A DNA stretch of 23,762 bases from Tubiluchus corallicola (Eukaryota; Animalia; Priapulida): positions 1 through 23,762 of the forward strand of contig JAQGDQ010001834.1 in assembly GCA_030141605.1 (NCBI GenBank), in the 5' to 3' direction. Under the pieces are notes generated by a model. That model saw only the letters and a program-made list of their open reading frames with translations. It did not search any database and was not told the DNA's origin. How positions within the stretch are numbered: position 1 is the first letter of the stretch; the number at the start of each line of letters is the position of its first letter. Made by a program: the position numbers and the translations under genes. Positions 2,099-23,762 of this stretch are shown here, piece after piece.

Positions 2099-3358
2099 TA
2101 GTGTTGCTCCGGATAGCGAATATCCGATGTTATTGAATATTTCCTCAAATTGACTTCCGGATTCGGATTATATCCAGATAGGTTAGCTATATTTGGATCG
2201 AATATACAGATCGGTTTGGATAATGAAAAATTAGTAAATGTTTGCAGACTTTAGCATTTTCATTCAGTCTGTCAAAAAAGACTTTCATCTTAAAGGATCT
2301 TGCCCAAAGATACACCATATTGCCACACGCAAACGAAAAAAGATAAAGATGTGTGTAAAATTTTCGTCTTGAAAACTCAAACATAGGCTAAAACAATCTA
2401 AGTTTTTTGGTAATATTTTGTGTAGATATTTTCGGCTGTTAAATTATGCGAAAACCGTTTTCAATTGCACATAACATAAACTGGATAGGGAATATTTGCG
2501 AATATCAAATTTTTAAAACTACTGGATAATATCGGATACGAATACTCGTAGAATCTCGCGAATACCACCTGTTGGGAGCCGAGTGGACCACTGCGCCAAG
2601 TAGACCACTTGATGCGCTAAAAGTAGTGTCCTACATGGGCAGCCCAAGTAGGACACTAGCGATTTTTGTCGAGAATCGGTAATTTTGTCAAATTTTTGAA
2701 AATTCTGTGAAAGTTTCTTCATTTTATTATTTACAGAAATAATTGCAAATTTAAAAATAAGACAGATGCTGCTAAGCCGTCACAACACCAAAAAGTAAAT
2801 TTTAACATTTAAGAAAAGCAAGGATAATTAGTTTTAATATTATCAGTAGTATTGTAACATGTAGGGCACTGTCCTACATGGCTCGCTAGCCCATGTAGGA
2901 CACATAGATCGCTAGAACGTTTACTTATAAGAAAACAATTATTTGCCCAAGAGGTAGTGGAACCGATCACCTGTTTGTGAAGTGAGACAAAATCAAAAAT
3001 GATATACCTTAAACAAATTTTGTATTCGCAAAAAAGTGGTTTTTTTTCACTTCAACAACATTAATATCGAAACCAAATTTAATATTGTCCTTTCTACCAG
3101 CTCAGAATAAAATTCTTTTATTTTATTAGATGTATAATAAATTATTCAACGTGTACTAACGTTTTTAATTATTATTATTACATAAACAAGCACAACGGAC
3201 GGTGTCAGTACACTTAACGACTCAATTCCCGACCTGTCTCTAGTGTCCTACTTGGGCAGCCCAAGTAGACCAATTGGTCTACTTGGCGCAGTGGTCCACT
3301 CGGCTCCCAACACCACCATTTTCGGATACGAATCGGATATCCGGTCGGAGCAACACTA
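2099..3358. mobile_element. Non-autonomous hAT-type DNA transposon (MITE), interrupted by a nested element
   Basis: 13-bp TIRs TAGTGTTGCTCCG (2099-2111) and CGGAGCAACACTA (3346-3358). 8-bp TSD ATTGTTAC (2091-2098) / ATTTTTAC (3359-3366), 7/8 match. Many subterminal CGGATA/TATCCG motifs. Confidence 0.8.
2570..3312. mobile_element. Non-autonomous TIR element with TGT...ACA ends and a 5-bp TSD (Ginger-like), nested in the hAT MITE
   Basis: Perfect 38-bp TIR TGTTGGGAGCCGAGTGGACCACTGCGCCAAGTAGACCA and its reverse complement ending at 3312. TSD CCACC at 2565-2569 and 3313-3317. Internal palindromic GTCCTAC..GGC..GCCC..GTAGGAC motif near 2626, 2870 and 3243. The superfamily call is inferred from the ends only. 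Confidence 0.85.
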
Positions 3359-3595
3359 ATTTTTACTAAGTCCTTAGGGGTTTTATTGACAAGAAATTAT
3401 TAGTAATTCTGCAATATGTATAAGAAAAAAATTAAAAAAAAACAAAATGAAAAATATTTGTTTGTTTGATGATTGTACGTTTTTCTGTTTTGATGATTGT
3501 GTGTTTGTCTGTTTTTCAGTTTAGGTGTAACTGATGTATCTCTCCAACAACTATGTCATCAATAGCTACATGATGTGAAATGCTGTCTAAGTGGC

Positions 3596-4963
3596 ATGTC
3601 GTCATATTTTGCAAATATTTCTTTTCTTGGCTGGATTGGCCTGTTTTTAGCACTTTTTCTGAGTTCTTTTGGCTTATCTACGTTCTTGCGCATTGTTGCG
3701 GCTCTCTGTGCTTTTTTAACTGGTTGCGGACTGCTACTATATAGTGGAACAGAAAAGGTTTTGCCACTTCTTAGAGAAAGATTAATGTTTAATCCTTGGG
3801 GCGCAGTCCGTGTCGGCGTTCCTATATCTTCCGTCGGCGATTCCCGGTCAAAGTATGTTAAACTCGACCGGCGCTTGACCGGTTCTTCACTGATAGATGA
3901 ACCTCTCCGAGAGGTTCTACATTATGCATTCCGAGACTACGTGCAGACTTGGTACTACACGAACATTAGCGACGACCAAAAATTTCTGCAAGATTTAAGA
4001 AGCACGGCTCAGCAGATTATCGTCAGGTCAGCAGATCTGTCGAAAAATGTAGACTGGGTCTCATACCTGACCACTCGTCTTGTCGACGACTTTGCTACTC
4101 ATTTGAGAATATACAGGAAGTCGGAGCTGAAGGTGAGGGAGCATCGAACAGATGAAGTGAAGCCTCCGTTAGTGAGTGTGTTTTTCGACACCGAATTAGA
4201 GTTGGAGAATTACAGCTTGTGTCGAGACCGAATTTGTTTATCCGGCGAACACGAGCGCGAATATCTGCGCACTCTTGCCGAAGTTTTGCTCTATTTACTT
4301 CTTTCTGCTGATGATTTCCAGAATAAGCCGTTTCGCTTGCTAGCCAGGGAACTTTTAGTGAACAAAATACTCATACCAATGGTTGAGTTGCTTTCAGATC
4401 CCGATTACATAAATCAAAAAATTATTTATTTCACCAAAGAACAGTCGCTGATTCCTGATGCTTTTGTTGATGCCCTAAGATTGTCAAACAACATTGATGA
4501 GGCCGAATCCATAAGAATCATAGTTAACCACGAAATTGCGCTGCAACGTTCAAAAGATTCTCGGGACGATGACACTAACATAAAAGAACAACTGCAGAGT
4601 TTGCTGTTCGTCAAAAATACTGTAGAAAGTCAGATACGTCGCATGGCTGAGGGAGACGAAACAGATTCCATTGGTTTGCCCTCTAGCGTCGATATGAATC
4701 GTTTGTTAGTGCCGGGAGCAAGGCTGTTTAATCTGTCTCTAGAAGCCGTCTTAAGCAACAGTTTAGCATTGTCATACTTTATTGACTATATGAGCAGCAT
4801 TGGCTGCCAACAGTACATATTCTTCTACCTTACTGTGGAAGGTTATCGAGTCACGGCCGAGCAACAGTTGTCTGCTGCACATTTAAATAAGGTCACCGAT
4901 CCATCTGCTCCGCCTATGAGCACGCTTCCACTCAGCGAGGCTGCTAAGACTATATGTGATCAG
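3596..4963 (+). CDS. SNX13: Sorting nexin-13, coding exon 1 (TM segments, PXA domain, start of RGS domain)
   Basis: First in-frame ATG at 3596 (MSSYFANISFLGWIGLF). Hydrophobic N-terminus; LDRRLTGSSLIDEPL...RDYVQTWY...YLTTRLVDDFATHLR (PXA); LSNSLALSYFIDYM...FYLTVEGYRVTAEQQL (RGS). Donor CAG|GTAAGA at 4963/4964, phase 0. Confidence 0.93.
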
Positions 4964-5413
4964 GTAAGATGTTGTGCATTGTAACCTTTGTGGTTATACT
5001 GTTATGGATGTGCGAAAGTTCACATTATTGTAGCCATTAGTAAAGATATCAGCGTAAGAAGTTTGATCAAAAACTTTAATAGTACTGTTCACTTTATTTA
5101 TTTTGAGTGCAAACCGTAGTTAAGTTTATTTAAATTGGACAGACAGTTAAAAATTTGAAATATAGTTATGTATTTTTAACTTTCTAAAAAAGGAATAATT
5201 TTCACTAGTTTTAACTAATATGGTTAAGTAGGTTTAAAAATCCAGTTTGAGATCAGGTAGGCAAGTTTGACTAATTCTGACATTAGATTTCATATTTCAC
5301 AAATTTCATGGGTTACATTTAACCCCTCAATTATATAACATGAATTCTGTTAGATTTTTTTGGTTCCAAATGGTTATTGATTATTGCTACTTTTTGCATT
5401 TTAGTTATACAGC

Positions 5414-5877
5414 TTTTGTTTATCCGTAAACAAGGATGATAATGTAACATTTAGTTGTTTATAATTCCTAGATGCCGTTATCTGAGCCATATTACAATTT
5501 GTTTGTTTTGTTTATCCGTAAACAAGGATGATAATGTAACATTTAGTTGTTTATAATTCCTAGATGCCGTTATCTGAGCCATATTACAATTTGTTTGTTT
5601 TGTTTATCCGTAAACAAGGATGATAATGTAACATTTAGTTGTTTATAATTCCTAGATGCCGTTATCTGAGCCATATTACAATTTGTTTGTTTTGTTTATC
5701 CGTAAACAAGGATGATAATGTAACATTTAGTTGTTTATAATCCATAGATGCCGTTATCTGAGCCATATTACAATTTGTTTGTTTTGTTTATCCGTAAACA
5801 AGGATGATAATGTAACATTTAGTTGTTTATAATCCATAGATGCCGTTATCTAAGCCGTATTACAATTTGTTTGTTTT
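5414..5877. repeat. Intronic minisatellite, 5 x 92 bp near-identical tandem copies
   Basis: TATCCGTAAACAAGG recurs at 5421, 5513, 5605, 5697 and 5789 (period 92) with only a few substitutions and no unique spacers. The array ends 9 nt before SNX13 exon 2. Confidence 0.95.
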
Positions 5878-5886
5878 AAACTGCAG

Positions 5887-6024
5887 TATCTGTCGGAGAA
5901 AGCTTCTCCTAAACTCAAACTTGATGAAGCCATGGTGAAAAGATTGTTGACAACTATGAATACTCAACCTGTAACAGAAAACTTATTTGACGAAGTACAA
6001 TCCCGAGTTTACGACGTACTTCAG
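5887..6024 (+). CDS. SNX13: Sorting nexin-13, coding exon 2 (RGS domain); absent from the ORF track
   Basis: CTGCAG| acceptor. Translates YLSEKASPKLKLDEAMVKRLLTTMNTQPVTENLFDEVQSRVYDVLQ, matching the SNX13 'YLSEKASP...FD..Q..VY' segment. Donor |GTAAAG; 138 nt, phase 0/0. Confidence 0.92.
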
Positions 6025-6365
6025 GTAAAGTAGTTTAGCGTATGAGTGCTAACTATGTAATAATTCACTGTAGAGCATTTGAAACGGCTGCGTTAATTAG
6101 TTTCTGTTCGGGGCATTAATGAGCTAAATTAAAGAATTTGTGTGATGCGCTAAATTTTGTTTATTGTCAAGCTTGGGAACATGATGGCTTCTCCAATCTG
6201 CTGTCCCAAGTTTTTGATAAGGTGGTTTTATCTTCTCATGTTTATGATCTAGCCAGGTGCACTTCTTTAGGTTTTGCTGATAGGAAGTTAAAACTAGCTA
6301 ATTTGTTTAAGCCATATATGAAGAAGGATATTCTTACACTGTTTGATAACAAAACTGATAATATA

Positions 6366-6826
6366 CAGTCAACCTCGGGTATAAGGTACTCGCTTATAAG
6401 GAACCACCAACACCGGTCCTGATTTTTCGTAACGTTTTTCCTATGTAAATAAGGTAGTCAGATATAAGGGACTTTCGGTTATAAGGGACGATGTCTTCAG
6501 GTCCCGCGTAATAGAAACCTACGTAAATTACCTCGCATATAAGTGACCCTATGATCAAAGCGAAATTGATCGATTGTTAACTTCAATTTTTCACAAACTC
6601 GGCCTTCGAACAGCTCGGTTTCCCCGGTCACATACATCTCGCATTACTGAAGGAGCTTCCTACATACCGTTTGCACTGAATGTGTAGCAATAATCCATAA
6701 AAATATGGATAAAAGTACAGGTCTAGATACACCCTTGGTCTGACTCAACTTCGGCTATAAGGGACATGTGAGATAAGGGATGGTTTTTCCCGGTCCGTGG
6801 GTATCCCTTATATCCCAGGTTGACTG
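6366..6826. mobile_element. Tc1/mariner superfamily (pogo/Tigger-like) MITE
   Basis: TA|CAGTCAACCTCGGGTATAAGG ... CCTTATATCCCAGGTTGACTG|TA. TA TSD, imperfect ~21-bp TIR, internal ATAAGGGA repeats. Confidence 0.85.
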
Positions 6827-7183
6827 TACATATAGAAAACTTCTATTCACTCACTGTAATAACGGCTTAATAGCAGAGTCATTTCTGAGTAAATGATTTA
6901 TGTATTTAAGTTCAGCCGCTCTTAACAAAACAAATAGCTATCATTTGCTCTACAAAGGCCACCCAATACGTGTCGTTGTTGTCTGTTCTTGCCTCTGAAT
7001 ACAGGAGAACGGCAGACAAAAGAAGTGTTTGATTATATAGTCATTGTCCAATTCAACTGGAGAACTGGGTTTATTTATTCTTCTGGTTCTGGTTCGAAAA
7101 AATAATTAAAGGATTGCAATAGCTTTTATATATCGTTTTATTTAAGCTCGAATTTTTCTTTGCCTTGTTTGTAATACATAGTA

Positions 7184-7578
7184 CAGTCGACCCTCGTTAA
7201 ACCGGACCCCGTTAGCCCGGATATCGGATAAGACGGACGTCATTCGTGGTAAAGGAAACTGACCGATTTCCGAGCTGGAGCGCTAAACACAACACGGCCT
7301 ACAACTCACCACGAGCCATTGACGGGCCGAAATTCAGTTTGCTTACCCCATCAAAAGCACTCGCTAATTTCTTTATGCTCTCAAAGGTTAACTATTTTAA
7401 TGTAATATACAGTATAGTATATAGTGCAATGTATATAGGCCTTATTAAGGTGATTATTCCTGTATAATAATATAGAGTCTATATTATAGACCATATATAG
7501 GCATATCGGATAAATCGGACAATCGGCTAAACCAGACCACCCCCCCCCCCATTTGTCCGGCTTAACGAGGGTTGACTG
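7184..7578. mobile_element. Tc1/mariner superfamily (pogo/Tigger-like) MITE
   Basis: TA|CAGTCGACCCTCGTTAAACCGGAC ... GTCCGGCTTAACGAGGGTTGACTG|TA. 24-bp TIR with 2 mismatches, TA TSD. Confidence 0.87.
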
Positions 7579-7736
7579 TATTTGGCTATTCATCCGCAGG
7601 TGGATCAAGCTTGTAAGTTTGTACATGCTGAACTATCAATTTCCTTCAAAATATTACTAATTTGAGCAACTCTTCAAATAGAAATGGGCTCTTTAACTTG
7701 TATTTTGCTGTTAAAGTACCTTGTGCAATGTGTGCG

Positions 7737-7898
7737 GTAAAGCAAACTGGATATTTGCATTTTCTCATAAGCGTATGTATGTTTTTATCAGGAAGACAGA
7801 TTTTTCCCAGCATTCACAGTAAAGCAAACTGGATATTTGCATTTTTTTATAAGTGCATGTATGTTTTTATCAGGAAGACAGATTTTTCCCAGCATTCA
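7737..7898 (+). repeat. 82-bp tandem duplication spanning the SNX13 exon 3 acceptor
   Basis: GTAAAGCAAACTGG...TTTTTATCAG|GAAGACAGATTTTTCCCAGCATTCA starts at 7737 and at 7819. Four mismatches, all in the intronic part. Confidence 0.93.
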
Positions 7899-7989
7899 AA
7901 CGAAGTCAGATGTACATTAAACTCCTAGCAGAATTAGACTTGCTCAAAGATTCGAGTAAATCAGAGGATGAAGATGATGCTTCGTCCAG
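7874..7989 (+). CDS. SNX13: Sorting nexin-13, coding exon 3 (end of RGS domain and linker); absent from the ORF track
   Basis: TTTTTATCAG| acceptor. Translates EDRFFPAFKRSQMYIKLLAELDLLKDSSKSEDEDDASS, matching SNX13 'RF.P.F....Y...LAELD.LKD'. Donor AG|GTAAGA, phase 2. Confidence 0.92.
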
Positions 7990-9065
7990 GTAAGATCGAC
8001 ACGAGCTGCAGCAGTTAGCGATAAACTAACGTCATTGCACTAGAATCAAGCATATGGCATTGCCAGAGTAATTTAGTACTCTGGTATCATAGTCTATGTG
8101 CAAAGATTTCTCTTTAACACAAGTGCATGGTTTTCGGGCACACCTGCTTCTGTAAAATGGCCAGAAAACTAATCAATTATAGAATCAATTTCAAATCTGA
8201 TTAATCAATTATGAAAATGCAACTGATGTCTCACCACTATTTTATTATGGAAATTATTTTGAAGTTACTGTCCTGATTAGTATGTTTTTGTAAATTTATT
8301 AGAGTCATTCATGTAACAAAACAAAGATATTATAGTAATATTGAAAATATATAACACTTCAATTAAAAAATTTGCACAAGTACCATCTTCCACAATATGT
8401 GTGTTTTGGTATACTATTTTTTTTTGAAGTCGTTTTTGTCTGAGTGTCTTTTTAGAGAGAAACATTTTGTTTTGCTGACTAAACATAGACATAGAACATT
8501 TATTTTCTCCAATGAGTTTAACATCAAAAGTTTTTTAAATATTACGTAGTTATAATCATGGAGCAGGGCAGGGAAGGACCATAGGGTCAACTAGTCTCCT
8601 GCCCTTTCTTAATATAAATAGATTAGTCATATTAAAAATTAACGGTGATGCTGCAGATAACAAAAACAAAAACAAATAAGAAAAAATACAAATAAAAATA
8701 GTATAAATGATGCAAATTATCCAAAAAGAACTGAAAACAAAAAATAATAAAGTTGGATACCAAAATCTAAACAAAACAATACAATTATTCAGTAATTAGG
8801 ATTATCATATGTAGTAGTTTCAAATTGGCTCTATTAATAGGGGAATTTGACCAAGGTTAGTGAGTAAAGTTAAAAAAACTGAGAGTATGGAAAGATAAAA
8901 TAAGTATCAAAAAAGTGTAATATAGAAAAAATTAAGAGAAAAAGTAAGTATGAGAAAGAGCAACAATTACTTAGGAGATGAGGAGAAAAAAAACTAATGT
9001 GATTAACGTGAATGCAGTTTTCTCTAGTTGAAGAGTTTGCATATTGATTACTGTGTGTTTTGCAG

Positions 9066-10344
9066 GGGTAGTAGTTTGCAAGGATCTGCTGAAGACTTGA
9101 GCAATTTAATGGAGGCAAGTGAGAGTGAAAGTTCAGTACTTGACACAACTTTAACTGCATCTTCAAGTGACACTGATAACAGCTTACCTATAACTGCCCA
9201 CATAATTCAAGCTGGGATTGTAAAGAGAACTTCTAAACCTTACGCGGTCTATAAAATAGCCGTAACTTGTTATGAACCGAAAGAAGAATCGTGGCAGGTG
9301 TTGCGCCGCTATAGTGACTTTCACGGTCTCAACACGAACGTCAAGAGTCGTTTTCCAAGTACGTCTAATCTGAATCTGCCCGGCAAAAAAACGTTCAATA
9401 ACTTGGATAAAGAATTTTTGGAGAGAAGACGAAGAGAGTTGAATATTTATTTGCAGAAACTGTTGAACCCTGATCTGCTGAAAACAAATGATGGGCTTTA
9501 TGAACTCGTTTTGCAGTTTTTTGAACAGGGTTCGTACGAAAAAGGGAGAGGTCAGTTTTCCCGGACTGTGGACACTTTTGTCAATCCGCTAAAGAACTCT
9601 GTGAGTAAAGTTGGTCGTGTTGTGACTTCGGTGCCGGAAAATATTTATGGTGGGGTGACTAGAGTGAGTACTGAAATCGGACGAATGAGCGGGACCATGA
9701 AAGACGGGTTAAGCAAGGTGCTGAACCTTCAAGTTTTGAAATCCGGTTCTTATTACGACGTTTGCAAAGTGGCGGCAAGTGTTGACATGGAGTATGACGA
9801 CAACATTCCCTTGCGAATTCTTTTATTGCTCATGGATGAAATGTTTGACTTGCAGAATCGGAATCAGTGGCTCAGGCGACGCATTGTCCTCTTCACTCGA
9901 CAACTCATCAATGCCACGTTCGGTGACATGATCAATAGGCGTATCGTTGACTACGTTGAATGGATTACGTCTCCGCAACTAATATCGGTTTACTTGAAGT
10001 CATTCCGAGATGCATTTTGGCCTAGCGGGCGTCCTGCCGACAGGTTACCTCCAAGGGACCAAAACACAAAGATGCGTACGCGCGTCATAGCAAGAACAAA
10101 ACTGCTCGGCAGCATGCCGGACGAACTAAGGACGCTTGTTGGGAACGAAACCACAAAGCATGGCGTGCAACGTGTTTCTGACATGTTTCAGATTCGTGAG
10201 TTAAACCGCAGGCTCGTTTATGTGCTTTTGGAAGGTTTACTCGAAACGCTGTTTCCAGAAAATAATTTTCACGAGCTTTTTCTGACTATTCATTCCAAAT
10301 CGCCGCGCGTGAAAGGCAAAACGCAGCAGGCCAATGTTAAATAA
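9066..10344 (+). CDS. SNX13: Sorting nexin-13, last coding exon (PX and PXC/Nexin_C domains)
   Basis: TTTTGCAG| acceptor at 9065 fits phase 2 (AG+G = Arg). PX motifs WQVLRRYSDF and LPGKKTFNN...FLERRR; PXC motif DDNIPLRILLLLMDEMFDLQNRNQWLRR...FRDAFWP. Stop TAA 10342-10344. Confidence 0.94.
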
Positions 10345-13096: not shown

Positions 13097-13268
13097 ATGG
13101 AGGAAAATACTGATGAACCCACCCAAGAAAAAATAACTGAAAATACAAGAGAGCCGCCAGAGTTAGTATGTGCGTTTTGCAAAGGAAGTTTTTACAATAG
13201 AGAGCCAAAGCTTTTACCTTGCCTGCATACATTTTGTAAGGCGTGTGTTTTGGTGGAAACCGGAGAAA
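13097..13268 (+). CDS. TRIM33: TIF1-family TRIM protein (TRIM24/TRIM33/bonus-like), exon 1: N-terminal part of the RING finger
   Basis: MEENTDEP...CAFC...REPKLLPCLHTFCKAC; 'EPKLLPCLH.FC..C' is characteristic of the TIF1 RING. Donor A|GTACGT at 13268/13269, phase 1. Confidence 0.88.
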
Positions 13269-14300
13269 GTACGTATCATGTTGAAAGCGAGTTTTAGAGT
13301 TTTGTTCTCCATTATGTTCAGAAAGTCACTATATATGACTTTATATGAGTCATTTCACGTGCAGTTAGCTAATTTGCGCGTCAAGCATTCAATGATTCGT
13401 CGTATTTTTGCAAAAAATTTTGAATGTCGTATCAGTCAGAGTTTGTAATACAGTAAGTATAATCCACGGAAAACGAGTTCAAAGAAAAAATGCTGAAGTT
13501 TAGCAAGGGTTTCAACTGTGTCATTCAAGCTAACATGTTTTTCCCGTCTGAATCATCACCCTCGTGTCATTGTGATCATAAGAAATTACAATTACACTTA
13601 CAGCAGTGCTTGAAGTTGCTAAGCCGATTCACCCGCATGTCGGCATGATTGCGTCGTACTTGATGTACATGACATTATTGTGTAAGCACGATCAATAAAT
13701 TCAGCGCCACAGTGCACCGTGATCTTGGTAAATGGTGTCCATTTTGCCCCTTGTTTTAGAACTTTCTCTCGTTATATGCAGAGTATCACCGGGTTGGAAA
13801 ATACCCTTGTAATAAGCAAGATCTCATAATATCAGGGCTTGCTTTAAGCAAAGTTTAAATATATTGTTTAAGCGTAAGATTTGGCTGGACTTTGAAATTT
13901 GCTCGTGGTAACCAGAGCCTCGTTATAAGTGGATTACGCTGCATAATCTATATCCTTTTCTCCATTATGTTTTTACATTTGAGGAAGCCTTCACTAAGTC
14001 TTTCATATTCAAGGTGTCATTTTTCCACGGAAAATGACCGTATTGAGACATGCTATTTTCCCTCTGTTTAACTGAATTTGCTCTAATTGGGAAGTTTATA
14101 AGAAAGATTTATAAAAAATGTCGTACTGGTTATTACTGTATCATTAAAGTACCAAATCTATCATTTATACATCACCATTCTTTGGGATATTTTAAAAAAT
14201 TAAGGGATAAAAACAAAATGTAAATCGCAAACCATATACGAGATAAAATCTCCTTTTTTAATTGACATCATTCTACATTTTGTAGTAGAGTTACTATAGG

Positions 14301-14713
14301 CAGTGGCATATTTAGGGGTTGGGTCCAAGGGGCCTGGCCCCTCCCTTGCCCAGTAACTGTTACAACACACCAAATTAATATTTTCTCTGAATTATAAGCA
14401 TTAGAACAATTTGCTAAATCCTAAAGGTGCCGTGAATTTGTCAAAATCATATATCACAAGTTATGTGCATAATGTATGTTGTATAGTGTATATCAAAACA
14501 ATGGTATTTTTGAGTCAAAGGTGAGGTGACACCTGTTCTAAACTAGTGAGCTTCCTTGAAGAAATGGATTCTAGAAGGCAGAAAAGTGTCTATGATGGAG
14601 TGAAATGTATTGTTGTCCGGGTGGACCTCGCTGGGGAGGTTACACCGCCCCCCGACCCTCTAACTGCTTTTGTTTTGGGCACACCGTTGTTCTGAAACCT
14701 GTATCTGCCCCTG
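14301..14713. mobile_element. Degenerate MITE with CAG(T/G)GGC-type termini
   Basis: Starts CAGTGGCATATTTAGGGG and ends CCTGTATCTGCCCCTG (imperfect TIR), with GC-rich subterminal blocks. No clean TSD. Confidence 0.55.
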
Positions 14714-15499
14714 ATAGATGTCCAGTTAGTGTCACTGACAGGTTGTTTAGTAGTTCAGCGTTATGACTCAGGTATTAAATAAACAAATATACCTGTAACT
14801 GCCATGTCCTACATGAGTAAAACAGAACTTTCAAGTTGCTTGTGCTACCTTCTTATAAAAAAACTCCAACAACATAATTGTGTAGCTTGTATCGTTTAAA
14901 CTGAAAACAAATAAGATAATTTTATATAATTTTGCTCAATTTTACGGAGAAATCTAAACCAAATTGATCTAATTAACTTTAACAAACTTTTACGCAAATT
15001 ATAAAATCTAATCTCTAGTCTTTTTAATAAACAAAGGTTCAAGATTTAAGAAATTAATAAATCAACTTACATGGTGATCTTCTATAAGTGTAGTTATGAA
15101 ATTATAACAACGAATCAATGAATTACGCTAAACAATCTGTAACTGCAGTGTGTGAATACCTGAGTTACTCCAATCTACAGGTAAGTGTACAGGTAAAAGA
15201 CAGGTAAAAGGAAACCAGTTTATAACAGAAAAGAGGGGGCAACACAAGTTTAAATCAGCACATTGTTGAACTTCCAAAGATTGAGTTTCCAGCCACAACA
15301 GGTTAAAATGTTTCCCAGTGGAGTTTGGGAAGTTTCCTAGAAACTAATGCCTTTTCAGCATTTTAGAGTTTTTGTAGCTGTTCAGTAATGTATAATAAGA
15401 ATATACTTCTTATTAAATTTTACCTTTCTATTGAAAAATTTTGTACAATGAATGAAATAATTTAACCAATAAATGTTTATGTATTTCAGTTAGGTATCA

Positions 15500-15717
15500 T
15501 ACATAAATATATGTAAAATTTATATACATAATATATTATATTATATAATTAAATATATATATATATAATATTATATATATTATATAATTTAATATTTAAT
15601 ATTATATTATATTATATTAAATTTATATATAACATATTTATAACAAATATATATATATATTTATCAAGATTTATATTATATATATATAAATATATAATAT
15701 ATATAGTACAATATATA
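15500..15717. repeat. AT-only low-complexity / degenerate (TA)n tract
   Basis: Almost only A and T. TA repeats continue on the other side of the MITE (16675-16720). Confidence 0.85.
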
Positions 15718-16672
15718 CAGTAGGCGCCGCTTAATAGACTCACTTTGGGACCGACGTGTTTTGACCCAATTAACTGGCTGAACCTATTAACCGATGGATG
15801 GTATTGTTACAGGTATGGAAGTATGAGTCTCAGCTTAACATGCGCTGCAAAGGTTTTAAATGAATTTTAGAAATGAAGTAATGCCTAAATTCCTTCGTGC
15901 AGTTAAAAATTAGGAAAAATATTTTAAAATATTAATTTACATGTGAATTAGCAACGAATTAAAAAGTATATTTTTCTAAATCACACAAGTCTGTTTATTC
16001 GCCAAAATAATGGAAATACATCCAAAATTGGTTGATTCATTTTTTGTGACAAGTTTGGTCAGAAAGTTCTCATAGTGATAAAAATGCTTAAAACTGTTGT
16101 TGTATGATACGCAAGTATGTGCTGGAACTGTTGGTGTAGACCGTATTTCTCCGCAGGAGGCTTTGTCTCTAAGCTTCCACTTGCCATCGTGACGTACTTA
16201 TTGTACTGTACCTGCATACGTGGCATAACAGCAATGGCAAACTGATTAAACTTTCGGGGAAAGACAGCCAGGGCTTCAAAAGCAAACCGCTAGACAAGTG
16301 ATTAAATGTTTAGCTTCCAGGAATTCTTGGGTAACGAGATTAATTGCAGTAGAGAGGCAGGTCAAAGCAAACCATTAGGCTATCATATTAGTGCGTGATA
16401 AACCTTCCTGCTTACACATAAAACGGTACTTAACAGGATTCTTTCTATTTATGTTATAGGACAAAAGCCAACTAGAATGATATAAAAGTCATAAAAGCTT
16501 ATTAGTCACACAAAAGTGTCTTATTGAAGCATGTGAAGCAAAAATATTGTGTCAATTATGCGGAGTTATGTGAGTCAATCACCAACAGTTTCTATGTACA
16601 TTTGAATAGAAGCGGCCCGTACCAGGCATTTTTGAGTCAATTAACCGACTGAGTCTATTAAGCGACACCCCC

Positions 16673-16674
<2 letters not shown>
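15718..16674. mobile_element. Tc1/mariner superfamily (pogo/Tigger-like) non-autonomous element inserted in a TA tract
   Basis: TA|CAGTAGGCGCCGCTTAATAGACTCA ... TGAGTCTATTAAGCGACACCCCCTG|TA. 25-bp TIR with 4 mismatches, TA TSD, subterminal (C/T)(A/T)ATTAACCG repeats. Confidence 0.82.
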
Positions 16675-16719
<45 letters not shown>

Positions 16720-16753
16720 TATAATTTCTTACCACATATATACACTTTTACAG

Positions 16754-16860
16754 ATGGAATACTTAAGTGTCCAGCTTGCAAATCTGAGTGGCGACATAGC
16801 CAAATCATTGACAACTATTTTGTATCAGAGCACACCAAACAGGCGGATTCAAATAATGAG
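16754..16860 (+). CDS. TRIM33: TIF1-family TRIM, exon 2: end of the RING finger
   Basis: TTTTACAG| acceptor, phase 1 (A+AT = Asn). GILKCPACKSEWRHSQIIDNYFV supplies the last CxxC and the TIF1-type 'I.DNYFV'. Donor GAG|GTAACT, phase 0. Confidence 0.9.
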
Positions 16861-18097
16861 GTAACTTTATATAACTTTATCAATTTTTTCCAAAATTTGT
16901 GCATAAAGGAATAAATACCTTATTTAGGTATATTTAAACATGCACATTGTAATAGTATTTTTATCAGTTTGTGTGAAAGTTATTTTTGAAGTTGTTGTTC
17001 AGTCACTTTGTTATGATTGAGTTTAGGCACAGAGAAGTATGAATAGGAACCAAAAATCTATAATAAATATTTGCACTGCACACAACAGAAAAGTGTTTAT
17101 TGAACTACACAAAACATGAGTAGCAAAACTGCTGCACTGAACATTGAGCAAAAACTAGAAAGCAAAAACAGTCAGTAAAACCTGTTTCACACCCAGTATA
17201 CAGGTATAGAACTTGACCTATGCAGACTTGCACAGGCTTCACAACAATTATTAATTTTAGATAGGGAGAGGACCAGTGTGTATGTAGTCACTGGACCATA
17301 CAATTATACTGAAGGTAAGTCAGCTGGTAGAATGTAACAAGATTAGCACATAGATGGCAGCACCTAACTACAATGTACAATTCCAACTTCCACAGTTTGA
17401 ATAGCTTTCAAACTCAGGAAATTGAAATCACATTTTTACTCCTCCAAAGTCAATTTTCCAATATATGTCATTGTTTAAGATCTGCACCGTTCTGCTTGTA
17501 ATTTACTATGCTGCAGACAATCAGTAATATGATCTGTTTTTAAATCCCCTGTGCAGACTTTGTTAAACATCGCACTGACTGAGTTAGAAAAAACGTATTT
17601 TATATCGCAAAATTGTTAAATAATCGTATTTGGTCTTTAGTGAGGTTTTCGTTCAAGCTAAACGGACATTCATTGAGTTTACGGGTTCAGCATTGTTTTG
17701 CACGGGAATATATTTCTTCATGTTTGTATTACACTTGAGATTTGCCATCATGGTTAATGTAAATGTATTTAACTGTAATCCAGGTTTTAGCACTGGACAG
17801 CTTCTGGTAGTAAGACAATGGATAATTGTGTTCCATAGAGCTAGAAAATGGTAGCACATTTGACTGTGTACAGTAATACATCACGGAGGTTTCAGGCCCC
17901 ACTTGACTCTTTGAAACTTGACTTATATAATTTCTGTATGATGCTTGGACACTGGGTGTAATTTTCATCTAAATTTTTGGATACTAGATTGAAACCTTAG
18001 TTTGCGTCTCTTAGGTTGTACGTATTTTTGTACTTTTCTTACGTGTGATATTGTGTTACATGTTTTTATTCAGTGTCCGACTGTATTTAACTTTCAG

Positions 18098-18220
18098 GGT
18101 GCTGAAAATACAGAGCGAACGTGCACTAACTGTGATGACGCTGCAGTGGCGACATCTTGGTGTGTAGAATGTGCGGAATGGATGTGTGATGCTTGTGTAC
18201 AGGCACACAAACGTGTCAAG
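18098..18220 (+). CDS. TRIM33: TIF1-family TRIM, exon 3: B-box 1
   Basis: CTTTCAG| acceptor. GAENTERTCTNCDDAAVATSWCVECAEWMCDACVQAHKRVK. Donor AAG|GTAAAT; 123 nt, phase 0/0. Confidence 0.92.
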
Positions 18221-18711
18221 GTAAATAAACGTTGCGAAGTCTAATTTAACGTTACTGAATGAATAGTAGCTTTAATCTCACTGGTGCATTGGCAAAAGAC
18301 AATAACTTAGAGTTCGCCAAAATCTTTATAATGTAATTTATTGACGATTTACAATCAATACAATTACAATTGCAATTACAAGTTACAAAACTGTACATGA
18401 ACAATGCATTACATTACAAGGAAGAAAAAACTACACAGACAGAATCCCGCACCTGGGGTATAATCATCAACACAATACACAATAAAACACAATAATAATA
18501 ATAATAATAATAATCGTAAACGGTATTTACAGTGGTTAAATGTTTCAATTATATTATATTAAGTTGTTTAACAAAGTTTAGTACGCAACTTTATATGATG
18601 GGTCCAATACATTTCAGCATATTAATACATTCATCGTTTACAATATAATATAATAATAGTAATTATAGTGTTATAATATTAAACCTGTCTGTAGTTTCAT
18701 AGGTTCGCATG

Positions 18712-18933
18712 TATTTCACAGGTCACCAAAGGTCACACTGTACAGGATAAGTCACAAGGTTGAGTGTGGCACCGTATTAATATATCACATTATATTTCAC
18801 AGGTCACCAAAGATCACACTGTACAGGATAAGTCACAAGGTGTGAGTGTGGCACCGTATTAATATATCTCAATATATTTCACAGGTGACCAAAGATCACA
18901 CTGTACAAGATAAGTCACAAGGTGTGAGTGTGG
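18712..18933 (+). repeat. Triplicated acceptor plus exon start (periods 81 and 82 bp) at TRIM exon 4
   Basis: TATTTCACAG|GT(C/G)ACCAAAG(G/A)TCACACTGTACA(G/A)GATAAGTCACAAGGT occurs three times, with the AGs ending at 18721, 18802 and 18884. Confidence 0.93.
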
Positions 18934-19030
18934 ATGCAGGAAAGTCTGCAGACAGGTTGCTTATATGCCATATTCATCGACAGGAACCACTTAAACTTTT
19001 CTGTGAAACTTGTGACACTTTAACGTGCAG
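18885..19030 (+). CDS. TRIM33: TIF1-family TRIM, exon 4: linker and B-box 2
   Basis: Third acceptor copy. VTKDHTVQDKSQGVSVDAGKSADRLLICHIHRQEPLKLFCETCDTLTC(R); 'TKDH' and 'LKLFCETCD.LTCRDCQL' are TIF1 signatures. Donor AG|GTAACA, phase 2. Confidence 0.92.
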
Positions 19031-19241
19031 GTAACATCACAGTTAGAAATTACCAACATGTTTTACATGCCTAAACATTTGAAATTTACTAGTACTTGCA
19101 TATTTCATATATAAATTTGTTTCTTGAATACAACAGTTTGCTAAAATCAAAACTGAAATTTGATGAGTAGGTCATGGAAATGGCAATAAAAATTTAAATT
19201 TTTTTTAGTTAATTTACTGCTATAGTACTTACTAAATTATC

Positions 19242-19244
<3 letters not shown>

Positions 19245-19336
<92 letters not shown>
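19245..19336. repeat. (TAA)n microsatellite, about 30 units; probable 3' tail of the adjacent minus-strand SINE
   Basis: Near-perfect trinucleotide run. On the minus strand it follows AATAAAG. Confidence 0.93.
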
Positions 19337-19589
19337 CTTTATTTAAAGTCGGCTTTTGGGTCAACAATTAACATTAGCTCAAAGAGCTATTATCGCCGAC
19401 TGTAAATAACAACCTACAACTATATAACAGAGACTATTATTACCCCACTTTTACCCTAAATACCGCGCGTCAGGCAGGGCAAAAGCAGGTACCATTTTTA
19501 AAGTCTTTGGTATGACCCGGCCGCTGGTTCGAACTCACGACCTCCCAGACGGAAAGCAGACGCATTACCACTAGACTAAACTGTCTGGT
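19337..19589 (-). mobile_element. tRNA-derived SINE
   Basis: On the minus strand: A box TAGTCTAGTGG (19578-19568), B box GAGTTCGAACC (19536-19526), then GGGTCATACCAAAGACTTTAAAAATGGTACC. That segment resembles, from memory, the conserved Meta/MESC SINE core. It is followed by a GTCGGC...GCCGAC stem and an (ATT)n tail. Confidence 0.8.
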
Positions 19590-20703
19590 TGAAATCTACC
19601 CTTAGTTTACATGCTGGAAGATTTCACCAGTTTTAATGGATATAGATTATACTGTAATTCTCACAATTATGGGCAAGCTATCTAAGAAACTTACTAGTCT
19701 TTTATAATTTTTACTAATCTATTTGATTACTGAACATCACAGTAGCTTATCGTGTAGCTAATTTATGATGCGAGTTTTTGTGTCACATTTTGAAACAAGA
19801 ATTGATTTTCCACGGTTTACAATAAAACAATTGGTGGGTCTGACTTTGCTGGCAAGAATTGGTTTGAGGACCAGAACTAAAGATCAGAAGTTGTGGTAAC
19901 AGTGCAGTTGTTTTTAAATAGTTCAGTAGAGTGTAGATGTAGACATCAGGTCCACGGTGGAGGTGTAGTGGCCTGTAGATGTGGACTTTAGGTCCATGCC
20001 GGTCTGAGTGGCTTGCTGGAGACTTGGGCATATTTTCACGGTCGGTGCGTCCCATTAGTGGCATGTCGATAGAGTAATTTGTGCCGTGAAAGTTTTGCTG
20101 AATTTCCCAGCAGTTGTGGATCTGCACTTGCTCTGCCAGGAGGAAGCCTGCAGGAATCACAAAAAGTGCTTAAGAACGTGCTAAAGCTTATTACTATTTA
20201 GACAAAATGAAAAGTTAGATTTAAGAAGACTGAAACACAAATTATTACTTTATGATTCTAGACATTTGAAGCAATTCTAACCAATTTAAACTATTAACTA
20301 ATTATTAAAGTAGATGGTGACTTACATTTACTGGTGACAACTTTGGCTTGAAAATACAACTAGTGTCTGTTAAATTGCAACAAAATAGACAAAGCAATGC
20401 AAGTATCGCCAAACGGCATGACCAGCATAGCGGCAACAGAAAATGTAACTACGTGTAAAAACAAGTGTGATTGATAGGTGGCGTATACTACTAAAGCTTA
20501 GGTCACATGACTAAGGCTGGCTTTGTTTTAAACAGTCTCAGAAAATTCATGTTTGTAAAAATGCGAAAAGAAAACAAATAATTATAGAATGCTAGATTAA
20601 ATGGCTTAACACCAACATTTTTTATGACGGATTTGTGGGTCATTTTATGAGTATTTTCAGCTTTTGTTGCTTTTAGAAACTTGTGTTGTTCTTGTATTCG
20701 CAG

Positions 20704-20860
20704 AGACTGTCAGCTTGTCATGCATAAAGATCACAAGTATCAGTTTATCGGAGAAGCGGCTACGCAACACAAACAGTGTCTAGCTACTCTTATACAAAAA
20801 ATGATTGAAAAGAAATCTTACATTGAAAGTGCACAGGCTCTGATTAATCAACGGAATCAG
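20704..20860 (+). CDS. TRIM33: TIF1-family TRIM, exon 5: end of B-box 2 and start of the coiled-coil
   Basis: TTCGCAG| acceptor fits phase 2 (AG+A = Arg). DCQLVMHKDHKYQFIGEAATQHKQCLATLIQKMIEKKSYIESAQALINQRNQ. Donor CAG|GTAAGA, phase 0. Confidence 0.92.
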
Positions 20861-21054
20861 GTAAGATAAGATTTGTGAGGCAACAGCCATTTTGAAATTA
20901 GCAAATCTAATGATGCTAAAAGTTTAGCATTAGGTAAAACGATGATTCATTAATACCAACCATTTATATCGTTATCATCGTTGAGGAAATGTTTTGGCTT
21001 AGTTATGAAGAAATTGCTCATAATTTTTGTGATTTATTTTTGCTTAATTTTGAT

Positions 21055-22149
21055 TTAGCTTTGTAAAGCTGCTTGACGTTGTTGTTGAAGGCGCTGTATG
21101 TGAGCTTCCTGTTGGGCTTTCATCTTTCGCTCCATCTCCGACTTCTGCCGTAGCAGAGTCTCCAACGACTCCGCGTAAGTCGACTGCTTGCTCGGACTCG
21201 GCTGAGGAGCCGATGGCCTGCTTGGACTCGGCTGAGGAATCGCCGGCCTGCTAGGACTCGGCTGAGGAACCGACGGCCTGCTTGGACTCGGCTGAGCAAT
21301 GGATGGCCTGCCCGGACTTATTGACGCTGGCTGATGCATTCCGCTTAGCATGGAAGATCTTTGCGGAGAAGGTGGAGGCATGCGCGAAGCCATGCTAGCA
21401 CTCAGTGGGTTGGAGAGGCGCTGCAACAGCTGTGAGTTGTGTCTGGCTTGCTGTTGCTGCATCCTGGGATCAATGTTCTGCTGGTTTCGTGGCAACATCT
21501 GGATCTGCTGCATTGATTGTTGCTGCTTTGCTTGCTGTGCTGCTGCCTGTATTTGTTTTGCTATCTGCTGTTGCTGGTGTTGTTGCTGCTTCATTTGCAT
21601 TTGCTGTTGGTGTTGTTGCTGCTGTTGCTGCTGCTGCTGCATCTGATTATGTTGGTGGTGTTGCAGATGTTGCTGCTGCTGCTGTATTTGTTGCTGTTGT
21701 TGCTGAACGTGATGTCCCGGTTCTTGGCGACTCACATTAACCGAGACGGATGGTTCGCTCGTCTGATTCACAAAACTAGGATTTGAGTTGTTATCACCAC
21801 TGCCAGATGAACTGCTAGTAGGCGGGCGGGAAACAGTCGGCTTTGCGTAACTCTGGTAAACCTGATTGTCCACAATCAACATCCCAAGATTTTGTATTTG
21901 TTGATTCAAAAATGCAGCTTCGTAAAAGAAACGGATATCCACCTTGTGGTGCGGATTCGGAACTTCGCATCGAGAGCGCAGAACATTTCTCAGTTGGTTT
22001 TGTATAACATGTTTACTGTATAAGAGCGCAGAATCGGTGCCAGTAAGCAAAGCGTGCTGGGCGAACTGCATACAATACTCTAGCTGCACAGAGAGCTCCA
22101 TCAACTGATCTTTCTTTGTAGTCAGCTGCGATTTCTTGTTGTTACAAAC
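21055..22149 (-). CDS. TRIM33: TIF1-family TRIM, exon 7 (inverted relative to exons 1-5): end of the coiled-coil, poly-Q and Pro/Ser repeat region
   Basis: Minus-strand acceptor TTTTTATTTGCTTAG| at 22150. VCNKKSQLTTKKDQLMELSVQLEYCMQFAQHALLTGTDSALLYSKHVIQNQLRNVLRSRCE...IRF...NLGMLIVD matches TIF1 'ALLYSK..I..QLR..L..RC...IRF...NLG.L'. No good donor precedes the TAA at 21057-21055, which probably arises at the inversion junction. Confidence 0.88.
   Translation of the reverse strand, partial: VCNNKKSQLTTKKDQLMELSVQLEYCMQFAQHALLTGTDSALLYSKHVIQNQLRNVLRSRCEVPNPHHKVDIRFFYEAAFLNQQIQNLGMLIVDNQVYQSYAKPTVSRPPTSSSSGSGDNNSNPSFVNQTSEPSVSVNVSRQEPGHHVQQQQQQIQQQQQHLQHHQHNQMQQQQQQQQQHQQQMQMKQQQHQQQQIAKQIQAAAQQAKQQQSMQQIQMLPRNQQNIDPRMQQQQARHNSQLLQRLSNPLSASMASRMPPPSPQRSSMLSGMHQPASISPGRPSIAQPSPSRPSVPQPSPSRPAIPQPSPSRPSAPQPSPSKQSTYAESLETLLRQKSEMERKMKAQQEAHIQRLQQQRQAALQS
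21186..21320 (-). repeat. Coding minisatellite, about 4.5 x 30 bp, encoding (PQ)PSPSRP(S/A)x
   Basis: On +, GCCTGCT(T/A)GGACTCGGCTGAG recurs with period 30. Confidence 0.9.
21500..21706 (-). repeat. CAG/CAA-rich poly-glutamine coding tract
   Basis: QQQQQQIQQQQQHLQHHQHNQMQQQQQQQQQHQQQ... within exon 7. Confidence 0.9.
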
Positions 22150-23373
22150 CTAAGCAAATAAAAAGATGCAAAAAAAGTTACACACTTTGAAGCCAATCAA
22201 CTTGCCAACAAAAGACAAGAAGCTGTTCTAATTTACAAAAATTAGTCAGTTTCATTTGAAAATTATCAACCTGGCTTCAGTTCAAGCCGCTTATAATTTC
22301 CACTTGTGCTGGAAACTTCAGCCTGTTGATGCTACTCTAACTTTATGACTGTATAAAGAGCAACTTTGCAGCTTTGTCCGAGTCAACCAGTACAAACAAA
22401 GTAAGCGAAAAATAATCTTTGCAACACATTAGCCACAGGTATTTAATTTTGTATGACTGCAAAATCACGCAACACATAATGTAAATATTTGCAGCTATTG
22501 CTAATTGTAGAAAATCTACAAATTATGCTCGCTCGACACAAGAAAACCCTCCACTTACATAAAGCTTAAAAAATTCGTCTTGAAATTTTATACCACTTAC
22601 ATACTACCTTTTCGTACGCATGGCTTGCATCGGCCGTAACGCTGTATAAAACTTGTAAATTTAAACTCCCGTGATGACTGTTAGACGCAGCCATTTTGAT
22701 GGTAGGTTCTTTGAAACAAGTTTAGATAACATTTAAATAAAGTTTGAAAAAATAATCAGAGCATTCGTAGCATACATGTTGCTAATTAAGTAAAATTTTA
22801 AATTACTGCATCTTGACAATAAGATTAAAAATACGTTTTTGGTTAGTGAGTGGCGCACCCTGCAGGGCGAGTCAACGACATTTTACCAATTGTCATAAAC
22901 ATTTAAATTAAATTTTAAAGTAATATAGATTTGCACGGAAAGTGTTTTGGGTCATAATCTAGCATTTGCTTTTCTTCCCCTGATTTACGTGGCGTAGTGA
23001 CGTCATGTAATGGCGCCGTCGGAACAGTATTGCGAGAGATTTAAAATGAAAAAAACAAAAATTCCTTTCAACTCGAATACGATATGTGCATAAAATTGCT
23101 GTAAAGTAGTATAATTTTTTAAGGCGATTTTTCTGAAACCTACTTCAGTGCCCTTTTTCTTGTCCTTTAAGCAGAAAACACAAAATGAAACTTTCTTATT
23201 AATAATAGCAATCCATATATATCTAAGTATGAAGAAGTTTGGAAAGCTAGAATAAATCTTTAATGCTGACAATATGAAATATAAATGTGAAAGTTTACTC
23301 ATCTATTTACAGTCGTGTTTGACGGTGCTGCCACCTTTCAACACTGATTTATGAGACCTTTAATGCTACATAC

Positions 23374-23484
23374 CATATTCAAATCGTTTAGCAGTAATTT
23401 GCCCCGCTTGTTTATTTCTGTGATGAACTTTACAGCAAACATTTTGATGTCATTGACAACACTAACTTCTCTGTCAGAAATCTC
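23374..23484 (-). CDS. TRIM33: TIF1-family TRIM, exon 6 (inverted): middle of the coiled-coil; absent from the ORF track
   Basis: Minus strand CCTTTACTGTAG|GAG...ATG|GTATGT; 111 nt, phase 0/0. EISDREVSVVNDIKMFAVKFITEINKRGKLLLNDLNM matches TIF1 'V...IK.....I.EINK.GK.LL..L' and fills exactly the gap between exons 5 and 7. Confidence 0.9.
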
Positions 23485-23588
23485 CTACAGTAAAGGAATA
23501 AACAATAACAACCATAATAATAATAATAACAACCATTACATACACCACAAGTCGTGCCATATAATTCAAAAACCATATAATCATAAAA

Positions 23589-23752
23589 CTAAACTAAAAG
23601 AACTCAGTAGAGTGCAGAGTGCCAGAAAGGGCATTTTTGCCCCTGTTCCTCCTAATGGCCCAGATCAACACTTAAATTTAATGCGCTCAACCTTGCCCCG
23701 GAAATTTATTAAAGGAAAACCGGACGATTGTTTAGAGTCAATTTTGTTTTAA
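23589..23752 (+). CDS. Probable continuation of TRIM exon 7 beyond the right inversion breakpoint
   Basis: Open frame (T)KLKELSRVQSARKGIFAPVPPNGPDQHLNLMRSTLPRKFIKG..., with higher GC than the flanks and no acceptor in front. It joins exon 7 in frame if 21060..23588 is flipped. The 3' end is uncertain. Confidence 0.5.
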
Positions 23753-23762
23753 TTTATTGTCC

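Follow-up and report, generated by a model that had tools for sequence, protein, structure and literature searches.

A TIF1/TRIM33-type gene written on both strands of a Tubiluchus corallicola contig likely reflects an inverted chimeric join at a single junction

The exons of one protein lie on opposite strands in Caenorhabditis elegans eri-6/7 and in Drosophila mod(mdg4). Isoforms of mod(mdg4) join exons from opposite strands, for which trans-spliced mRNAs have been shown, and the eri-6/7 product is encoded by one contiguous gene in C. briggsae (PMC4667647). Inverted joins are also a well-described laboratory product. Joins of nearby segments in opposite orientation are given as the commonest chimera of multiple displacement amplification, with chimeric distances usually below 10 kb, a peak at 250-300 nt, and overlaps of 5-8 nt (PMC9984789). 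For long-read data, 5,124-7,604 false inversions per amplified library have been reported, together with thousands of misassemblies (10.64898/2026.06.11.730069). Few chimeric contigs were described for two amplified small animals (PMC11660948), suggesting that such joins are not inevitable.

Here we analyze a stretch of 23,762 nt from the priapulid Tubiluchus corallicola (assembly GCA_030141605.1, contig JAQGDQ010001834.1), referred to in full as the window. Like members of the TIF1 family (TRIM24/TRIM33 and Drosophila Bonus), the gene that it carries has a RING finger, two B-boxes, and a coiled coil in that order, with a Q-rich linker next. Unlike them, it is without PHD and bromodomain exons in the window, and its exons 6 and 7 read on the opposite strand. 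It shares with eri-6/7 and mod(mdg4) the placement of one protein's exons on opposite strands, but whereas trans-spliced mRNAs were shown for mod(mdg4) (PMC4667647), the junction here is contradicted by contigs of two studies. With inverted chimeras it shares a single opposite-strand join of nearby segments from which the piece between is missing (PMC9984789), an arrangement that has been found to turn up in assemblies as a false inversion (10.64898/2026.06.11.730069), although the jump here, of at least 2.7 kb, is above the reported peak. The neighboring gene, for sorting nexin 13, has its best match in Priapulus caudatus, at 65% and 594 bits versus 440 bits for the next, which gives no more than a hint of lineage. 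The TIF1-type gene is laid out in the window as follows.

13097..13268, + strand: exon 1 of a TIF1/TRIM33-like gene, with the ATG and the first part of the RING (Pfam zf-RING_UBOX, E 2e-6)
16754..16860, + strand: exon 2, end of the RING
18098..18220, + strand: exon 3, B-box 1 (Pfam zf-B_box, E 2e-7)
18885..19030, + strand: exon 4, first part of B-box 2 (Pfam zf-B_box, E 1e-5; TRIM33 matches)
20704..20860, + strand: exon 5, end of B-box 2 and start of the coiled coil, with a phase 0 donor
20861..21060, + strand: 5' portion of intron 5, truncated at the junction (GT donor at 20861, G+C 0.28, depth present in data set X1)
21060..21061, no strand: single strand-switch junction, likely a chimeric join (X1 record 4, X3 record 20, G+C step)
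21061..22149, - strand: exon 7, rest of the coiled coil, polyQ, and a 30-nt repeat, its 3' end cut by the junction
22150..23373, - strand: intron 6, with a high-copy repeat at about 22537-23170
23374..23484, - strand: exon 6, coiled coil, phase 0/0, AG/GT
23485..23762, - strand: likely 3' part of intron 5, unbroken up to 23721 and leaving the window inside a high-copy repeat (X1 record 8, depth of the last bin)

On the + strand, exons 1 through 5 are bounded by GT donors and AG acceptors, with phases 1, 0, 0, 2, and 0. On the - strand, exon 7 starts at 22149 with an AG directly upstream. The phase-0 splice sites of exons 5 and 6 are intact. The exon coordinates, splice sites, and phases agree with the preliminary description of this DNA, which had placed exons 1 to 5 on the + strand and exons 6 and 7 on the - strand, and its conclusion that the gene as written cannot be cis-spliced stands as well. 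Its statement that nothing is missing and that all splice sites are intact does not hold: the end of exon 7 in the window has no donor-like site, the contigs of other data sets diverge at 21061, and a tblastn search of the window with five TRIM33 proteins found no PHD or bromodomain exons. Joined by script, exons 1 to 7 gave 636 codons and a stop. That stop lies at 21057-21055, on the AT-rich side of the junction, where the G+C content is 0.20 (21031-21060) versus 0.40-0.67 from 21061 onward. Since the stop is located across the junction, the 636-aa protein would be a product of the join, and the RBCC plus polyQ protein of this length that had been proposed as a natural product finds no confirmation. 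The + strand just left of the junction resembles a splice acceptor; acceptor-like sites occur in these introns once per 233 nt.

The pieces on both strands belong to one TIF1-type gene, as judged from domain content and protein alignments. Matches above the Pfam cut-off identify a RING finger on exon 1 (zf-RING_UBOX and zf-C3HC4) and two B-boxes on exons 3 and 4 (zf-B_box). We gathered 112 TIF1/TRIM33-like homologues, 11 of them by way of exon 4 and 101 by way of the start of exon 7, and the first 376 residues of the model matched every one. Alignments that span the exon 5/6 joint were free of gaps within 10 residues in 75 of 76 cases, as were all 92 that span the exon 6/7 joint. When the two halves were aligned separately, exon 6 began one residue past exon 5 in 56 of the 57 homologues covering both, which bears out the earlier view that the pieces make up one TIF1-type protein; the joint alignments also place the coiled coil contiguous with B-box 2. 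Identity was about 39% to fish TRIM33 over some 360 residues. It reached 43-47% for the 12 best homologues, named TIF1 proteins of chelicerates and nemerteans among them; the named homologues are TIF1-alpha/TRIM33-like proteins from fish, chelicerates, and nemerteans. Exon 7 matched TRIM28 structures weakly (E 0.03), a word-index protein search with its start passed none of 16 candidates, and the protein atlas gave no match at 0.9. Among 10 long homologues that we scanned, a PHD was present in eight and a bromodomain in seven. The last 135 residues of exon 7 had no significant match among the 112 homologues, so the homologues do not indicate where the exon properly ends.

Four public runs, representing two samples and two studies, contain the stretch, all as Logan contigs rather than raw reads, and we compared these contigs with the window over 19400-23762. 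Logan contigs omit rare variants and are evidence for presence, not for absence. Exon 7 runs past 21061 into other DNA in two data sets, and the exit falls exactly at the drop in G+C. In X1, record 4 (297 nt, depth 234) matches 21283-21061 with no differences, after which come 74 letters that are unlike the window's sequence. Contigs of a single haplotype have depths of 79-118 in X1, so that the depth of record 4 corresponds to roughly both haplotypes. In X3, from the second study, record 20 (354 nt, depth 12) agrees with 21340-21061 apart from three differences and likewise has 74 letters left over. As the contigs of both studies leave the window sequence at the same position, exon 7 is cut at the junction.

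The contig table gives the end on which leftover letters lie only indirectly, and we deduced their placement from other records. If positions are taken to run along the strand of each record, what is left over of record 5 and of record 21 extends, from the two sides, into a repeat that was skipped (21564-21653). The long leftover of record 24 is then placed past the repeat end at 23170, where long loose ends lie. From these three records we conclude that the leftovers of X1 record 4 and X3 record 20 almost certainly lie below 21061. This reading needs one coincidence, an end of X2 record 10 precisely at the limit of the stretch, whereas the opposite reading requires records 5 and 21 to stop exactly at mask edges. 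In that opposite case, X1 record 4 and X3 record 20 would both stop at 21061, a pattern that would point to a branch at this position. We infer that the 74 letters are identical in X1 and X3. The total for the X3 bin at 20860-21005 is too low to contain them, and an exact 21-nt search beside the junction in metagenome contigs yielded 10 loci, all of them chance matches of 21-28 nt.

X1 record 6 (323 nt) is unbroken over 22022-22344, across the acceptor of exon 7, and exon 7 is therefore joined to intron 6 as in the window. X1 record 8 (376 nt), from the other haplotype with 19 differences and 21 gaps, covers 23325-23721 in a single piece. The preliminary description had envisaged a two-ended inversion with its far end near 23588; since record 8 is unbroken there, that second breakpoint is absent. 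There is one junction only, at 21060/21061, and no 2.5-kb inverted block. For a candidate breakpoint at 23588-23597, the + frame after 23597 is protein-like for 50 codons, but this frame has no Pfam match, the site shares no inverted repeat with the junction, and record 8 crosses it. The best match of the junction to 23490-23700 covers 7 nt and lies off site.

None of the listed contigs links exon 5 to exon 6 or 7 in either orientation. In X1, exon 5 (depth 146-216) and exon 7 (about 190-240) are covered to a similar extent; the depth left for 21006-21060 is about 151 per base, a value that cannot show a piece bridging the junction. X3 is without cover at 22028-22319, a hole that proves little, and its listed pieces fully account for the bin totals in all four bins checked. 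Three of the eight listed X1 pieces are identical to the window, as are none of the four unique X3 pieces. Because of these identical X1 pieces, one of which is a half-depth haplotype contig found beside a second haplotype with 12 differences, X1 probably carries the haplotype of the window. It may be the window's own sample, in which case the case for an artefact would be stronger, not weaker. The X1 contig passes 21061 at about the depth of both haplotypes, and the window's junction is therefore probably missing or rare in X1, since in a de Bruijn assembly a contig would normally be broken at 21061 if a second path were common there.

Taken with the gene structure, we consider it most likely that the strand switch is an inverted chimeric join or assembly artefact and that the real gene is collinear, in line with the mis-oriented assembly that had been put forward as the leading explanation. 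The test suggested at the time, that reads all supporting a collinear arrangement would mark the switch as an artefact, is answered in part, at the level of contigs. In the proposed sequence of events, the 5' part of intron 5 would have been fused at 21060/21061 to a segment from farther downstream in this gene, taken as its reverse complement and itself cut at or within the 3' end of exon 7. The + strand would thus enter intron 5 for 200 nt and then switch to a segment at least 2.7 kb downstream, and past the junction the window would read backwards through exon 7, intron 6, exon 6, the 3' part of intron 5, and a repeat. Such a join could have arisen as the DNA was amplified, as the library was made, or in the assembly itself, and a chimera from library making or a mis-join by the assembler would leave the same picture as one from amplification. 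The animal itself would have a collinear, cis-spliced gene in which exon 7 is followed, beyond the window, by exons for the PHD and bromodomain.

Two traits of inverted chimeras are present at this locus. The strand switches once, between segments that lie close together, with no break at 22149 or anywhere up to 23721, and other data continue differently at the join, as seen in X1 record 4 and X3 record 20 on the exon 7 side only. A fold-back duplication across the junction was absent among eight minus-strand self matches, and no segment occurs on both strands. An inverted repeat of 11 matching letters in 12 links the junction to the exon 7 acceptor and was counted against a chimera.

The best of the competing explanations is a real and recent inversion allele in the source individual, with breaks at 21060/21061 and beyond 23721, that truncates or nulls the gene. 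From the window alone, a chimera and a real inversion of which one end is seen cannot be told apart; the junction has clean sequence on either side, and X1 need not be the window's own sample. X1 nevertheless seems to carry the window's haplotype, yet passes 21061 into other DNA at about the depth of both haplotypes, and X3 exits at the same point. We regard a private inversion as unlikely.

Less probable still is that the species truly has facing half-genes, split within the coiled coil, with exon 5 trans-spliced to exon 6 and the PHD-bromodomain exons between the halves lost from the assembly at 21060/21061. The intact phase-0 sites of exons 5 and 6 would permit such splicing, ordinary genes split into trans-spliced halves have been documented (PMC4667647), and the orientation of exon 5 relative to exons 6 and 7 is read in no independent contig. 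This scenario, however, would take both a fixed inversion and, at the same position, a deletion artefact, each of them rare, where one chimeric join explains everything. The minus-strand half is not a complete unit with its own end, exon 7 being cut at 21061, and a 636-aa trans-spliced product in the form first proposed is excluded because exon 7 passes 21061 in two studies. Among the titles and abstract openings listed from the literature on TRIM33/TIF1/bonus with trans-splicing and on trans-splicing and inversion in priapulids, we found no trans-spliced TIF1 gene. Although we rate it as very improbable, obligate trans-splicing of a conserved chromatin regulator would, if true, extend to another animal lineage and fall inside a structural domain, and it would offer a direct model for a gene surviving an internal inversion.

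A reversible DNA switch was also considered, in which exon 7 flips between inverted repeats at 21055-21066 and 22142-22153 and a broken state alternates with one that splices exon 5 in frame to exon 7 with exon 6 skipped. The two sites, the latter at the exon 7 acceptor, match in inverted orientation at 11 of 12 letters, a level that 25 of 2,000 random 12-mers reached anywhere in 21061-23762, and the flipped state, built by script, has an open frame of 364 codons that follows an AG and is in phase with exon 5. This imperfect 12-nt pair around exon 7 is the only inverted repeat seen at segment ends, and it was noticed post hoc. At the right-hand repeat, X1 record 6 is continuous and has the arrangement of the window; at the left-hand site, one contig each of X1 and X3 leads without a break into other DNA. 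Skipping exon 6 would, in addition, delete 37 residues that adjoin exon 5 in 56 of 57 homologues. The DNA did not show both orientations, as single unbranched X1 contigs extend over 21061, 22149, and 23588, although contigs would drop rare states. We give the switch almost no credence. Like trans-splicing, which had been listed with it among the earlier explanations, it gained no support from contigs that carry exon 7 past 21061 into other DNA in two studies and that, in X1, are also unbroken over 23588 and 22149.

Finally, two tail-to-tail TIF1 paralogues, with the window joining the first part of one to the interior of its neighbor, could account for best matches that are not the same for the two halves (bit scores over 57 homologues have a rank correlation of only 0.41), but this is extremely improbable given that the window has no duplicated exon, the halves abut exactly, the similar X1 depth over exons 5 and 7 gives no sign of a near-identical second copy, and Drosophila is described as having one TIF1 gene (PMC10672805).

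The single inverted chimeric join thus favored here has consequences for the use of this assembly. The contig likely holds a chimeric inversion, and its TIF1 gene model would come out split or truncated. Other findings of inverted exons in the same assembly need a prior check against reads.

The gene encoding sorting nexin 13, whose closest named protein comes from Priapulus caudatus (65%), lies in the same window as the TIF1/TRIM33-like (TIF1) gene, together with three elements that carry terminal inverted repeats at both ends and are likely non-autonomous DNA transposons. High-copy repeats were recognized from contig depth in X1, a public sequencing run whose assembled contigs were aligned to 19400-23762; their summed depth ranges from 10^4 to 10^6.

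Features of the window (element ends are approximate)
2570-3312, element with terminal inverted repeats
3566-10344, +, sorting nexin 13 gene, two very large exons
7182-7580, element with terminal inverted repeats
15722-16675, element with terminal inverted repeats
19400-19590, intronic high-copy repeat
20130-20600, intronic high-copy repeat
21180-21318, -, coding tandem repeat in exon 7 of the TIF1 gene, 30-nt unit, 4.6 copies
22537-23170, intronic high-copy repeat
about 23690-23762, intronic high-copy repeat within which the window ends

Tandem duplication also covers the starts of exons. The acceptor and 5' part of TIF1 exon 4 are duplicated by an 82-nt tandem repeat (2.7 copies, 18712-18933), in which the last copy carries the full exon and the preceding copies supply additional acceptors. 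Another tandem duplication (7737-7898) takes in the beginning of one exon of sorting nexin 13 together with the acceptor before it; the unit length is the same as in the TIF1 gene, 82 nt, but the sequence is different.

Around the junction, where the TIF1 gene switches strand (21060/21061), the sequence shows an inverted repeat (21057-21070) whose 6-bp arms, 2 nt apart, straddle the switch point and could mark a fold-back point. The + flank also carries an acceptor-like sequence, and 21055-21066 matches 22142-22153, at the exon 7 acceptor, as an inverted repeat in 11 of 12 letters. Exon 7 inverted between these two sites was not seen among the contigs of the public runs.

The 30-nt repeat of exon 7 encodes a Pro/Ser-rich peptide repeat. 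A 165-aa homologue, P0132, matches the start of this exon at 62%, and because its similarity is lost exactly upstream of that start, the comparison suggests that a relative has an intron at the same position.
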